NCBI RefSeq assembly: GCF_058153355.1
Contig: NZ_CM177019.1
Length of the DNA stretch: 64,000 nt
Direction: 5' to 3' (one strand)
This document shows, piece after piece, positions 574 through 60,909 of the stretch. The translations under genes and the position numbers were made by a program. The notes under the pieces are model-generated. The model did not search any database and was not told the DNA's origin. It saw only the letters and a program-made list of their open reading frames with translations. The first letter of the stretch is position 1. Each line of letters begins with the position of its first letter.

Positions 574-1197
574 TTAATCCAGTTGGGTAATATCAAAAGC
601 GGCGCGGTCGATCACCGCAATGATCTTTTTTATTTGTGCATCAGTGATATCGCTCTGGTTGACGCGTAAATCCAGCACCGCTTTAAAATTATCCAATGCC
701 CGCTTCATTTGCGGGTTCTGGCGCAGCGCCGCGCCAACGCAACGCGCTTTGATGCGTTCTTCAATCATCTCCACTTGTTCGCGGTTTTCTTCCAGCCACT
801 GCGCGCCTTGTTCGGTCAGCGCAATCTGCTTCTTACCACCTTCCTCTTCGCGGATGGTAATCAGCGACTGCTCCTGCAGAAAATCCAGCGTCGGGTAGAT
901 GACGCCCGGGCTTGGGGTGTAATTTCCCTGGGTCAGATTTTCAATCGCTTTAATCAATTCGTAACCGTGGCTGTCATCGCGCGAGAGAATATCCAGAATC
1001 ACCAGACGCAATTCGCCGTGACCAAAGAAACGTTGCCGACGACCGCCGCCGCGACCGTGGCGACCACCGCAGCATTGACCGTGTTCATGCTGGTGACCGT
1101 GTCCACAGTGTTCATGTTCTGATTTCTCACCTTTGCAGCAGCCTTCATGGCGTGGCTGGCCTTCATGTTTACAACACCCTTCGTGATGATGGCTCAT
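574..1197 (-). CDS. yqjI: PadR-family transcriptional repressor with His/Cys-rich N-terminal metal-binding tail
   Basis: 207-aa ORF; N-terminus MSHHHEGCCKHEG...HEHCGHGHQHEHGQCCGG; divergent from yqjH as in K-12. Confidence 0.85.
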   Translation of the reverse strand: MSHHHEGCCKHEGQPRHEGCCKGEKSEHEHCGHGHQHEHGQCCGGRHGRGGGRRQRFFGHGELRLVILDILSRDDSHGYELIKAIENLTQGNYTPSPGVIYPTLDFLQEQSLITIREEEGGKKQIALTEQGAQWLEENREQVEMIEERIKARCVGAALRQNPQMKRALDNFKAVLDLRVNQSDITDAQIKKIIAVIDRAAFDITQLD

Positions 1198-1217
1198 ATC
1201 AGCCTCCTTTTGCTTAA

Positions 1218-1232
1218 TTAGATATATCTAAT
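1218..1232. promoter_or_regulatory. Palindromic candidate operator (TTAGATATATCTAA) just upstream of the yqjI start
   Basis: Near-perfect palindrome seen directly in the sequence, about 20 nt from the yqjI start codon; a near-identical copy sits at 1447-1459. Confidence 0.45.
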
Positions 1233-1297
1233 TTATATCTGATGTAAGCATTAGTGCAAGTGTAAAAATGATTTTTAAACGTGGACTCATCTCACAC

Positions 1298-1333
1298 GTA
1301 GGCCGGATAAGGCGTTCACGCCGCATCCGGCGT
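1298..1333. repeat. REP element in the yqjI-yqjH intergenic region
   Basis: GTAGGCCGGATAAGGCGTTCACGCCGCATCCGGCG; typical REP palindrome. Confidence 0.7.
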
Positions 1334-1413
1334 TGAGTAATGATGCCTGAGAAGAGGCGGTTCGTCTTATCAGACTATAGACATATCAGTTCTACAAATC
1401 GCTTGCATTTATC

Positions 1414-1434
1414 ATGATTAACAATCATTATCAT
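1414..1434. promoter_or_regulatory. Candidate Fur box upstream of yqjH
   Basis: ATGATTAACAATCATTATCAT resembles the Fur consensus GATAATGATAATCATTATC; yqjH encodes a siderophore-interacting reductase. Confidence 0.45.
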
Positions 1435-1446
1435 TTACGAAAATTA

Positions 1447-1459
1447 TTTAGATATATCT
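1447..1459. promoter_or_regulatory. Second copy of the TTTAGATATATCT palindrome, 25 nt upstream of the yqjH start
   Basis: Direct sequence repeat of the motif at 1218-1232. Confidence 0.45.
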
Positions 1460-1484
1460 GATTATCATCACGAAGGCGATAACA

Positions 1485-2249
1485 ATGAATAATTCCCCCA
1501 GCTACCCACAGCGCGTTCGCAATGATCTGCGCTTCCGTGAACTGACTGTGTTACGCGTTGAGCGTATCAGTGCCGGTTTTCAGCGCATTGTCCTCGGCGG
1601 CGAGGCGCTGGACGGTTTTACATCGCGCGGCTTTGACGATCACAGCAAACTCTTCTTTCCTCAATCTGACGTTCACTTTGTGCCGCCAACGGTAACGGAA
1701 GAGGGGATCGTCTGGCCGGAAGGACCACGCCCACCGTCGCGTGACTATACGCCACTGTATGACGAACAACGTCATGAACTGGCGATCGATTTCTTTATTC
1801 ACGACGGCGGAGTCGCCAGCAGCTGGGCGATGCAGGCGCAACCGGGCGATAAACTCACGGTGGCGGGGCCGCGCGGTTCGCTGGTGGTGCCGGAAGATTA
1901 CGCGTATCAGGTGTATGTTTGCGATGAGTCCGGAATGCCGGCACTGCGCCGCCGCCTGGAAACGTTGAGTAAACTTGCCGTTAAACCGCAAGTTACCGCG
2001 CTGGTCAGCGTACAGGATAACGCCTGTCAGGATTATCTCGCGCACCTTGATGGTTTTAATATCGAATGGTTGGCGCATGATGAGCAGGCGGTAGACGCAC
2101 GCCTGGCGCAGCTGCAAATCCCTGCCGATGATTACTTCATCTGGATAACCGGCGAAGGCAAAGTCGTTAAGAATTTAAGCAGCCGCTTTGAAGCGGAACA
2201 GTATGACCCACAGCGGGTACGCGCAGCGGCTTACTGGCACGAAAAGTAA
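1485..2249 (+). CDS. yqjH: NADPH-dependent ferric-siderophore reductase (siderophore-interacting protein family)
   Basis: 254-aa ORF with an FAD-binding fold signature; synteny with yqjI and ileX. Confidence 0.85.
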   Translation: MNNSPSYPQRVRNDLRFRELTVLRVERISAGFQRIVLGGEALDGFTSRGFDDHSKLFFPQSDVHFVPPTVTEEGIVWPEGPRPPSRDYTPLYDEQRHELAIDFFIHDGGVASSWAMQAQPGDKLTVAGPRGSLVVPEDYAYQVYVCDESGMPALRRRLETLSKLAVKPQVTALVSVQDNACQDYLAHLDGFNIEWLAHDEQAVDARLAQLQIPADDYFIWITGEGKVVKNLSSRFEAEQYDPQRVRAAAYWHEK

Positions 2250-2302: not shown

Positions 2303-2378
2303 TGGTGGCCCCTGCTGGACTTGAACCAGCGACCAAGCGATTATGAGTCGCCTGCTCTAACCACTGAGCTAAGGGGCC
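2303..2378 (-). tRNA. ileX: tRNA with CAU anticodon, likely tRNA-Ile2 (lysidine-modified); elongator tRNA-Met not excluded
   Basis: Reverse complement reads GGCCCCTTAGCTCAGTGGTTAGAGCAGGCGACTCATAATCGCTTGGTCGCTGGTTCAAGTCCAGCAGGGGCCACCA: cloverleaf, CAT anticodon, encoded CCA. Position between yqjH and mug matches K-12 ileX. Confidence 0.85.
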
Positions 2379-2502: not shown

Positions 2503-3008
2503 ATGGTTGAGGATATTTTGGCTCCAGGGTTACGGGTTGTGTTTTGCGGTATCAATCCTGGTCTTTCATCCGCCGGAACTGGTTTTCCCTTTGCTCATCC
2601 GGCAAATCGCTTCTGGAAGGTGATATATCAGGCTGGGTTTACCGACCGTCAGTTGAAGCCGCAGGAGGCACAGCATCTGCTGGATTATCGTTGTGGTGTC
2701 ACCAAACTGGTAGACCGTCCAACGGTGCAAGCCAATGAAGTTTCAAAGCAGGAGCTGCACGCAGGCGGGCGTAAGCTGATTGAAAAATTGAGGATTATCA
2801 ACCACAAGCGTTGGCGATCCTCGGCAAACAGGCTTATGAGCAGGGCTTTAGCCAGCGCGGCACGCACTGGGGGAAACAAACGCTCACTATTGGTTCGACG
2901 CAGATTTGGGTACTGCCAAATCCCAGCGGTTTAAGTCGCGTTTCACTGGAGAAACTGGTTGAGGCGTATCGGGAACTGGACCAGGCGTTGGTAGTGCGTG
3001 GGCGATAA
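2503..3008 (+). pseudogene. mug: G/U mismatch-specific DNA glycosylase gene carrying a -1 frameshift in an A5 run (2783-2787)
   Basis: The frame from 2503 reads ...GRKLIEK then runs into unrelated sequence to 2934. The +2 frame from 2784 reads [22 protein letters not shown]...ALVVRGR to the stop at 3008. The two halves join only if one A is added to the homopolymer. Confidence 0.8.
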
Positions 3009-3015
3009 AAAACGC

Positions 3016-3028
3016 CACCGAAAAGGTG
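3016..3028. repeat. 13-bp target-site duplication, left copy (CACCGAAAAGGTG)
   Basis: Identical 13-mer directly flanks both ends of the IS element. Confidence 0.85.
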
Positions 3029-4454
3029 TAATGCCGATCAGTTAAGGATCAGTTGACCGATCCAGTGGCTGTGTAAGAATCCGGAAACGCTCACTTGTTT
3101 CCGGATTTTTTTATGCACATTGGACAGGCTCTTGATCTGGTATCCCGTTACGATTCTCTGCGTAACCCACTGACTTCTCTGGGGGATTACCTCGACCCCG
3201 AACTCATCTCTCGTTGCCTTGCCGAATCAGGTACTGTAACGCTACGCAAGCGCCGTCTTCCCCTCGAAATGATGGTCTGGTGTATTGTTGGCATGGCGCT
3301 TGAGCGTAAAGAACCTCTTCACCAGATTGTGAATCGCCTGGACATCATGCTGCCGGGCAATCGCCCCTTCGTTGCCCCCAGTGCCGTTATTCAGGCCCGC
3401 CAGCGCCTGGGAAGTGAGGCTGTCCGCCGCGTGTTCACGAAAACAGCGCAGCTCTGGCATAACGCCACGCCGCATCCGCACTGGTGCGGCCTGACCCTGC
3501 TGGCCATCGATGGTGTGTTCTGGCGCACACCGGATACACCAGAGAACGATGCAGCCTTCCCCCGCCAGACACATGCCGGGAACCCGGCGCTCTACCCGCA
3601 GGTCAAAATGGTCTGCCAGATGGAACTGACCAGCCATCTGCTGACGGCTGCAGCCTTCGGCACGATGAAGAACAGCGAAAATGAGCTTGCTGAGCAACTT
3701 ATAGAACAAACCGGCGATAACACTCTGACGTTAATGGATAAAGGTTATTACTCACTGGGACTGTTAAATGCCTGGAGCCTGGCGGGAGAACACCGCCACT
3801 GGATGATACCTCTCAGAAAGGGAGCGCAATATGAAGAGATCAGAAAACTGGGTAAAGGCGATCATCTGGTGAAGCTGAAAACCAGCCCGCAGGCACGAAA
3901 AAAGTGGCCGGGACTGGGAAATGAAGTGACAGCCCGCCTGCTGACCGTGACGCGCAAAGGAAAAGTCTGCCATCTGCTGACGTCGATGACGGACGCCATG
4001 CGCTTCCCCGGAGGAGAAATGGCGGATCTGTACAGTCATCGCTGGGAAATCGAACTGGGATACAGGGAGATAAAACAGACGATGCAACTGAGCAGGCTGA
4101 CGCTGAGAAGTAAAAAGCCGGAGCTTGTGGAGCAAGAGCTGTGGGGTGTCTTACTGGCTTATAATCTGGTGAGATATCAGATGATTAAAATGGCGGAACA
4201 TCTGAAAGGTTACTGGCCGAATCAACTGAGTTTCTCAGAATCATGCGGAATGGTGATGAGAATGCTGATGACATTGCAGGGCGCTTCACCGGGACGTATA
4301 CCGGAGCTGATGCGCGATCTTGCAAGTATGGGACAACTTGTGAAATTACCGACAAGAAGGGAAAGGGCCTTCCCGAGAGTGGTAAAGGAGAGGCCCTGGA
4401 AATACCCCACAGCCCCGAAAAAGAGCCAGTCAGTTGCTTAACTGACTGGCATTA
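3029..4454 (+). mobile_element. IS4 insertion sequence, 1426 bp, complete
   Basis: 18-bp imperfect terminal inverted repeats TAATGCCGATCAGTTAAG (3029-3046) and CTTAACTGACTGGCATTA (4437-4454); single transposase ORF; 13-bp direct repeats at both ends; length matches IS4. Confidence 0.9.
3113..4441 (+). CDS. insG: IS4 transposase (DDE family)
   Basis: ORF 3095-4441; start at [16 protein letters not shown] gives 442 aa. Recognised as the IS4 transposase. Confidence 0.85.
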
Positions 4455-4467
4455 CACCGAAAAGGTG
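4455..4467. repeat. 13-bp target-site duplication, right copy (CACCGAAAAGGTG)
   Basis: Identical to 3016-3028. Confidence 0.85.
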
Positions 4468-23994: not shown

Positions 23995-24412
23995 CCGGAA
24001 AGCGGTTCACAGATCTCGCTTCGAACCAGGCAGGCCTATTGACGCTGTTGTTTTTTCAACCTAAAGTAAAGGAACAAGGGTAAGGGAGGATTTCTCCCCC
24101 CTCTGAATTGGTTGTTAGTAAGTCGGGAAACTTAACAGTAACAACACAATCAGTATGATGACGAACTTCATCATAACCCTTTCCTTATACAAGGCCCCTT
24201 CCTCGGGAGGGGCTTTCCCGTTTCAGCCCCTTGCTGACTCCCCGATTGTTGATGAGCGCCAGACCCCGCGCAATGCTTTCTCTTATGCAGTTTTCTCTTC
24301 CCCGAGTCGGCTCGCAAAACGCTGTAACAACCTGATCATTTGTACTTTTTAGCGGAACACAGATATAAAAAATCCCCGACTTTTTGGGCCAGGGATGTTC
24401 ATGGTTGAAAAT

Positions 24413-27655: not shown

Positions 27656-27810
27656 GCTTATTCTCAGGGCGGGGCGAAATTCCCCACCGGCGGTAAATCA
27701 ACTCAGTTGAAAGCCCGCGAGCGCTTTGGGTGCGAACTCAAAGGACAGCAGATCCGGTGTAATTCCGGGGCCGACGGTTAGAGTCCGGATGGGAGAGAGT
27801 AACGATTCTG
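27656..27810 (+). ncRNA. FMN riboswitch (RFN element) in the ribB leader; expression platform continues towards 27900
   Basis: Conserved RFN core segments TTCTCAGGGCGGGGCGAAATTCCCCACCGGCGGTAAA ... AGCCCGCGAGCGC ... GATCCGGTGTAATTCCGGGGCCGACGGTTAGAGTCCGGATGGGAGAGAGTAACG directly upstream of ribB. Confidence 0.85.
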
Positions 27811-60805: not shown

Positions 60806-60909
60806 ACGTTCCTCCTTTATATGAACTCACCGGAGCTGGCTCCGGTGAGGTGTTGTGAACTTAAGTCTGGACGAAATGCCCGAAAACGAAAGTTTGAGGC
60901 GTAAAAAGC

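Follow-up and report, generated by a model that had tools for sequence, protein, structure and literature searches.

The region studied here is the 5′ part of nfeR (yqjI), a gene on the minus strand of the window (i.e. the whole stretch of 64,000 nucleotides that was analysed) that is divergent from nfeF (yqjH) and separated from it by a spacer of 287 bp (1198..1484). The two genes and the ribosome-binding signal of the first one are as follows:

574..1197, minus strand: nfeR (yqjI) coding sequence, 207 codons plus stop (ORF list, translation and RefSeq annotation)
1203..1209, minus strand: Shine-Dalgarno sequence AAGGAGG of nfeR, 5 nt upstream of the ATG (direct reading)
1485..2249, plus strand: nfeF (yqjH), divergent, encoding an NADPH-dependent ferric-chelate reductase (Pfam FAD_binding_9 and SIP; RefSeq)

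Translated on the minus strand, 574..1197 yields a protein of 207 aa that starts with MSHHHEGCCKHEGQPRHEGCCKGEKSEHEHCGHGHQHEHGQCCGGRHGRGGGRRQRFF. In other strains, RefSeq has a CDS of equal length (624 nt) at the corresponding position, under the name ‘DNA-binding transcriptional regulator NfeR’. This identical RefSeq CDS and the AAGGAGG sequence lying 5 nt from the ATG indicate that the unusual N-terminal tail described below is translated and is part of the protein. The PadR profile of Pfam (PF03551) matches residues 67–136 with a score of 56.6 bits against a gathering cutoff of 27 (E = 2.5e-15), and the protein of the window is 100% and 99% identical to the clusters P0001 and P0002, respectively, the latter being named NfeR by NCBI. 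This Pfam score and these identities to RefSeq NfeR bear out the initial annotation of the locus as YqjI, a PadR regulator. The tail peptide quoted there is an exact match to the translated ORF, corresponding to the first 58 residues of NfeR, and the span proposed for it, 1003..1197, covers codons 1–65 on the minus strand, the strand having been left unstated.

With a 2-kb query around nfeR, of which at least 80% had to be matched, the locus was detected in 5422 of the 5426 complete genomes of E. coli; the annotation there comprises nfeR and the divergent nfeF, with aer, a tRNA, mug and rpoD as their neighbours. The NfeR protein of E. coli K-12 is the same protein, with 207 aa, an identical tail and one substitution (T185S, as compared with a K-12-like strain), and the K-12 locus exhibits the same divergent nfeF, two palindromic sites and a REP element. 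Nothing substantial distinguishes the strain of the window from this locus: there are 16 synonymous changes, an IS4-type insertion close by and a frameshift in mug, the last two being unrelated to the tail. Two other ORFs overlapping nfeR, 999..1166 (minus strand) and 709..1122 (plus strand), were rejected as genes, both being shadow frames of nfeR, and a scan with Rfam gave no match to an RNA family within the tail-coding DNA or close to it. The shadow frame at 999..1166, which is open across the tail-coding DNA on the same strand as nfeR, reads MKASHAMKAAAKV... The database proteins P0005, P0062 and P0063 start in this frame and then continue in that of NfeR, a pattern suggestive of gene calls with a frameshift, or of sequencing errors, within this repetitive stretch.

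Several features were observed elsewhere in the window. The mug gene, encoding a G/U mismatch DNA glycosylase (2503..3008, plus strand), carries a deletion of one nucleotide in an A-run near position 2783 by comparison with E. coli R32_14_1F; the deletion splits the gene into ORF pieces of 143 and 65 aa, and mug is probably a pseudogene in the window. Between mug and rpoD, an insertion of 1,426 bp (3029..4454), absent from the compared reference strain, contains an ORF for a transposase of 448 aa (3095..4441) and is flanked by a direct duplication of 13 bp (3016–3028 and 4455–4467); it looks like an IS4-type element. The tRNA with a CAU anticodon at 2303..2378 (minus strand) is called tRNA-Met by ARAGORN and tRNA-Ile by RefSeq, and is presumably of the lysidine-modified ileX type. 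Rfam matches above the gathering score correspond to a SIB RNA (antitoxin sRNA) at 24039..24189, an FMN riboswitch at 27656..27804 and an ES173 sRNA at 60844..60907.

The spacer between nfeR and nfeF contains the following elements:

1218..1243: operator-like palindrome TTAGATATATCTAAT with an extra half-site TATATCTGAT, on the nfeR side (pattern search; repeat families D1, D2 and I7)
1302..1331: REP-like GC-rich hairpin (inverted repeat I5, 14-nt arms, 86% complementary)
1421..1437, plus strand: Fur-box-like AT-rich site upstream of nfeF, weak, with 3 mismatches to three NATWAT hexamers
1448..1462: operator-like palindrome TTAGATATATCTGAT, on the nfeF side (pattern search and repeat listing)

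The two palindromes of the type TTAGATATATCT, one near each gene, are 230 bp apart from centre to centre, i.e. about 22 helical turns, and the extra half-site lies at 1234–1243. The pattern TTAGATATATCTRAT gives four strand-hits in the 64 kb against 0.06 expected, all of them in the spacer (1218–1232 and 1448–1462), and the palindrome motif is also found in the loci of E. coli R32_14_1F and Citrobacter. The median number of matching places per E. coli genome is 30, to which the spacer segment contributes, as expected of a dispersed repeat. NfeR reportedly binds the palindromic sites at both promoters, according to Wang, Wu and Outten in J Bacteriol 193:563 of 2011 (hereafter Wang 2011) and to Wang et al. 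in J Bacteriol 196:3199 of 2014 (hereafter Wang 2014), the second of which is said to describe communication between two binding sites and an involvement of the REP element. The features of the spacer fit these accounts and that of Blahut (see below), and the weak Fur-box-like site is consistent with the control by Fur to which the title of Wang 2011 refers. In a gSELEX study, the aminopeptidase and DNA-binding protein PepA was found to bind a single genomic target, which is the nfeR–nfeF spacer (PMC8249747).

The coding sequence of nfeR can be divided from the N-terminus onwards into a tail, a junction and two folded domains, all listed here on the minus strand:

1051..1197, minus strand: variable His/Cys/Gly/Glu-rich tail, codons 1–49, predicted to be disordered (composition, AlphaFold2, orthologue tails)
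1168..1185, minus strand: HEGCCK copy 1, codons 5–10, CAC GAA GGG TGT TGT AAA (codon listing)
1132..1149, minus strand: HEGCCK copy 2, codons 17–22, CAT GAA GGC TGC TGC AAA (codon listing)
1057..1080, minus strand: GQCCGGRH unit, codons 40–47, holding the third CC pair (perfectly duplicated in E. coli M21816)
1018..1050, minus strand: junction motif GGGRRQRFFGH, codons 50–60, between the tail and the PadR domain (orthologue conservation; pLDDT 75)
790..1017, minus strand: PadR winged helix-turn-helix, residues 61–136 (Pfam PF03551, AlphaFold2, Foldseek)
577..789, minus strand: C-terminal helical domain, residues 137–207 (AlphaFold2 helices)

The first 60 residues of NfeR are made up of just 11 residue types, mainly Gly (14), His (13), Glu (7), Cys (7) and Arg (6). 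His and Cys together account for 20 of these 60 residues, against a background of 3.3% in the 52 long ORFs of the same 64-kb window (binomial P = 2.7e-15), and the runner-up stretch of 60 aa among these ORFs contains nine. The entropy of the tail (3.02 bits) is lower than that of all background 60-mers sampled. The composition of the tail is far outside chance expectation, and these values agree with its earlier description as a His/Cys-rich low-complexity N-terminus. The paired cysteines and HxH repeats of that description could be counted as three CC pairs (C8C9, C20C21 and C42C43) and five HxH motifs.

An AlphaFold2 model of NfeR, computed from an alignment of 90 sequences, has a mean pLDDT of 81.6. 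Block-mean pLDDT values for residues 1–50 are 45–52, with no secondary structure assigned to residues 1 to about 55, and climb to 75 over the junction block (residues 51–60). The winged helix follows with pLDDT above 90 (helices 62–73, 78–88 and 97–109; strands 113–117 and 123–127), and then three C-terminal helices (139–160, 162–181 and 186–204) with pLDDT of 87–96. The tail is predicted from this model to be a disordered appendage joined to the fold via GGGRRQRFFGH, and the C-terminal helical domain may have a role in dimerisation, by analogy with two-domain PadR proteins. The top Foldseek matches in the PDB are the PadR, LmrR and Rv3488 structures (probability 1.00, core only), and the best sequence match in the PDB is a PadR protein whose alignment is confined to the winged-helix region (E = 6e-9); neither the sequence search of the PDB nor the Foldseek structure search retrieved a solved structure of NfeR or of its tail. 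NfeR has the winged-helix fold and the family profile in common with canonical PadR regulators (PadR of Bacillus subtilis, LmrR and Rv3488), which sense phenolic acids or drugs in their dimer core. However, the solved PadR structures align to the core of NfeR only (residues ~56–165, with one weak match reaching residue 32) and none of them has a His/Cys-rich tail in the alignment, whereas NfeR adds a predicted disordered tail of about 55 aa.

The initial annotation had also noted a near-repeat around HEGCCK and suggested an internal duplication. This near-repeat could be confirmed: when shifted by 12 residues, the sequence matches itself at 7 of 9 positions, and 36 of 2000 shuffles that preserved the composition did at least as well. 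Between the two HEGCCK copies, four of six codons differ, every change being a synonymous third position, so that the duplication, if there was one, must be old, with the peptide kept ever since. Tandem Repeats Finder detected no repeat in positions 950–1250 of the window, and a seed-based repeat search found just short near-repeats of 12–24 nt, so that the window itself provides no DNA-level proof of duplication; the 24-nt unit encoding GQCCGGRH, for instance, is 75% identical in DNA to the adjacent 24 nt (1034–1057). In E. coli M21816, the nfeR gene (L013, 501..1148) carries a perfect 24-nt tandem duplication with two copies of GQCCGGRH, and encodes a protein of 215 aa with four CC pairs. 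The suggestion of an internal duplication is supported mainly by this case and by the tandem-unit expansions in orthologues, and less by the window.

In a sample spread across the 5422 matches in E. coli, M21816 is the only strain in which the tail segment of 195 nt differs in length. Between the window and a K-12-like strain, 16 synonymous differences and one non-synonymous difference were counted in the whole of nfeR, five and none of which, respectively, fall in the tail. This pattern of substitution argues that the tail peptide is under purifying selection.

The tails of orthologues were extracted from the 120 best database matches, all of Enterobacteriaceae type, three of which lack the anchor motif and gave no tail. 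The tail-length variation that was to be looked for among YqjI orthologues was indeed found, since the length up to GELRL ranges from 17 aa (in some Enterobacteriaceae, without Cys) to 98 aa (in a Citrobacter, with 10 Cys). The junction GGGRRQRFFGH is unchanged in nearly all extracted tails, with a few exceptions carrying single substitutions, e.g. RRPRFF; the invariance of the residues that follow GH in alignment A2 is by construction and provides no evidence, these residues having been pasted from E. coli as an anchor. Enrichment in His is likewise seen in nearly all the extracted Enterobacteriaceae tails, whatever their length, the few exceptions being frame-shifted gene calls. The number of Cys residues ranges from 0 to 10, and CC pairs were seen, among the extracted tails, in sequences of Escherichia, Citrobacter and Salmonella only; the Phytobacter tail has two isolated Cys, that of Kluyvera intermedia a single one, and those of Leclercia, Lelliottia and Huaxiibacter none. 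Close relatives differ by small or repeated units: the tail of E. marmotae has one extra HE, those of Citrobacter differ by insertions of 19–20-aa units of the type HEGCCKGEGHxHEGxHxEHH, and the tail DNA of Citrobacter sp. R56 consists of a 60-nt unit in 3.1 copies with 91% identity.

A SIP-type reductase is divergent from the regulator in all five orthologous loci inspected (Citrobacter, Leclercia, Kluyvera-type and others). The short-tailed and the Cys-poor or Cys-free forms are therefore true positional orthologues, and the presence of tails of 17–35 aa without Cys beside a SIP-type reductase indicates that a long Cys-rich tail is not needed for the repressor as such. Since CC pairs are restricted to some clades, the mechanism of E. 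coli may not extend to most orthologues.

The distribution of cysteines bears on one alternative function of the tail. The three CC pairs and the lone Cys of the tail, in a protein that regulates iron assimilation, could make it a thiol/redox or Fe–S sensor with a disulfide or a cluster, and not nickel, as the switch, and a meta-analysis lists yqjI among multi-stressor genes, including oxidative stress (PMC9501238). We nevertheless consider such a sensor very unlikely, given that the cysteines are missing in many positional orthologues (Leclercia, Lelliottia and Huaxiibacter) in which His is retained, and that nickel and Fe2+ are the effectors named for NfeR (PMC6649764).

The wider family was explored by a full HMMER scan with the NfeR core, which retrieved 4753 representatives at E ≤ 0.001. 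The 108 full-length relatives at about 35–46% identity have low-complexity tails of 35–157 aa (median 61.5). This wider PadR subfamily has the core and an R-x-R-x-F-[DE] junction in common with NfeR, at which its tails end, but these tails are mostly Gly/Arg-rich, unlike the His/Cys tail of NfeR: only 15% of the 108 contain at least 15% His and only 4% a CC pair. No SIP reductase was found beside relatives of this level of identity at the three loci inspected, one of which is just a 1-kb contig. At one of these three loci, in Morganella psychrotolerans, a PadR relative with 40% identity (L007, 3001..3792) and no adjoining SIP reductase has a tail with the 18-aa unit CHGDHHEHGEHHGRGEHG in two, three or four copies depending on the isolate (proteins of 245, 263 and 281 aa); at the DNA level, the period is 54 nt, with 3.0 copies and 87% identity. 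This His/Cys tail is independent of that of NfeR.

The tail of NfeR could in principle be a tolerated low-complexity product of replication slippage without specific function, as might be suggested by its highly variable length (17–98 aa), the recent tandem duplications in Citrobacter sp. R56 and E. coli M21816 and the very different composition of the G/R-rich tails in relatives at 35–46% identity. This is extremely unlikely in view of the five synonymous and zero non-synonymous differences in the E. coli tail, of its uniform length in all sampled strains but M21816, of the His enrichment kept in nearly all Enterobacteriaceae tails extracted and of the HEGCCK peptides, which have been kept though four of six codons differ synonymously. 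The tail is real and almost certainly functional.

A tail of similar composition is known in E. coli at the C-terminus of SlyD, where it is nickel-binding and disordered. It comprises 51 aa, including 16 Gly, 15 His and 6 Cys, with two GCCGG motifs (the SlyD sequence that we used is identical in 196 of 196 residues to the full-length PDB entry 2KFW). The NfeR tail follows the same pattern, with predicted disorder, dominance of His, Cys, Gly and acidic residues, and GCC/CCGG motifs, and both tails contain a block GH-x-H-x-HEHG..CCGG-[RK]-G-x-GG. The two tails are located at opposite termini, that of SlyD being attached to an FKBP prolyl isomerase whereas that of NfeR is attached to a DNA-binding domain. 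An unadjusted Smith–Waterman comparison of the two tails gave a score of 102 against 67 ± 10.5 for shuffled sequences (z = 3.3; 3 of 1000 reach the score), which was driven by the block that they share, and composition-adjusted BLASTP of the NfeR tail against SlyD did not align the tails (E = 67). At the DNA level, the similarity of the slyD and nfeR tail regions was reached by 60 of 500 synonymous-codon shuffles and thus shows no excess, and a recent exchange of DNA between slyD and nfeR was rejected on these grounds. The NfeR tail therefore appears SlyD-like in its composition and in one short block, a recent transfer being unlikely, and as far as these sequences tell, the likeness might reflect either convergence or an ancient common origin.

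This resemblance raises the question of whether the tail serves mainly as a metal buffer or store, in a chaperone-like fashion, as in SlyD or Hpn, taking up nickel without passing on an allosteric signal, with the PadR core responding to something else. Besides the composition and the short motif resembling those of the SlyD tail, the many repeated H/C units, which reach up to ~98 aa in Citrobacter, would suggest capacity rather than one defined site. However, nickel and Fe2+ are listed as effectors of NfeR and its repression is relieved by nickel (PMC7981267 and PMC6649764). A low-copy repressor would moreover be a poor buffer and no alternative ligand pocket was identified, so that a role mainly in buffering or storage is very improbable in our opinion.

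The preferred reading, a tail that makes the repressor responsive to nickel, agrees with what has been written about NfeR. Wang 2011 reportedly likened the N-terminal extension to the C-terminal tail with which SlyD binds Ni2+, and in the same study nickel or iron is said to have lowered DNA binding by NfeR in vitro. The study of Blahut et al. (2018, in J Inorg Biochem), to judge by its title, is reported to have found that nickel-induced allosteric regulation requires conserved cysteines. From Wang 2011 and Blahut 2018 together, NfeR is said to bind Ni(II) directly, the tail being its SlyD-like metal-binding part. One half of the initial annotation, which had spoken of a ‘metal-sensing tail fused to the DNA-binding domain’, namely the tail as the metal site, agrees with what these two studies are reported to show. 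The other half, a regulator that responds to metal, stands on published descriptions of a nickel- and Fe2+-responsive repressor (PMC7981267 and PMC6649764). NfeR/YqjI is described as repressing nfeF in a nickel-dependent manner, with an excess of nickel lifting the repression, and deletion of nfeR in Klebsiella pneumoniae increased nfeF expression 85-fold (PMC7981267). Nickel stress induces nfeR (PMC9508795), the effectors of NfeR are given as nickel and Fe2+ (PMC6649764), and nfeR has been described as a gene that ‘encodes a Ni-responsive Fe3+ uptake regulator’ (PMC8249747). One review of nickel regulators does not mention NfeR, and a phrase and keyword search of the literature, with Wang 2011, Wang 2014 and Blahut 2018 outside its scope, retrieved no description of the tail.

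Considering gene identity, composition, predicted disorder, operator-like repeats, synteny and the pattern of selection, which were observed here, and the repressor role and the nickel and Fe2+ response, which come from the literature, we think it very probable that the region encodes the disordered His/Cys/Gly/Glu-rich tail of NfeR and that this tail provides nickel-responsive gating of an enterobacterial PadR repressor. The tail as the metal site and the route of the signal from there to the DNA-binding domain are the inferred parts of this reading. Metal-free NfeR would bind the two TTAGATATATCT palindromes, so that both nfeR and nfeF would be repressed. Upon a rise of cytoplasmic nickel, the imidazoles of its His and the thiolates of its Cys residues would allow the tail to bind the metal, Fe2+ reportedly having the same effect as nickel in vitro, and the metal-bound tail would weaken DNA binding by the adjoining winged helix via the GGGRRQRFFGH junction. 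The weakened operator binding would then derepress both promoters. In its evolution, the tail behaves as a tandem-repeat module, with gain and loss of H/C-rich units.

A further idea, which we put forward tentatively and regard as possible though rather doubtful, is that the tail is an evolvable tandem-repeat ‘metal rheostat’, in which the gain and loss of His/Cys units of 8–20 aa would set the metal threshold or selectivity of NfeR in each lineage. Besides the span from 17 to 98 aa among orthologues, rare variants in copy number occur within E. coli and within Morganella. If this were true, most orthologues would sense metal by histidines only, or respond to another metal, since the Cys pairs reported to be necessary in E. 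coli are seen only in Escherichia, Citrobacter and Salmonella.

The tail is an already described feature of a named E. coli regulator, and our analysis brings nothing new about E. coli itself. What it adds is modest and testable, namely the near-invariant junction, the repeat-driven variation in length and the clade-restricted Cys pairs. In E. coli, the tail connects iron assimilation with nickel stress and exemplifies the control of a winged-helix repressor by a disordered metal-ligand tail, and its natural variants could help to work out how DNA binding is gated by a disordered tail.
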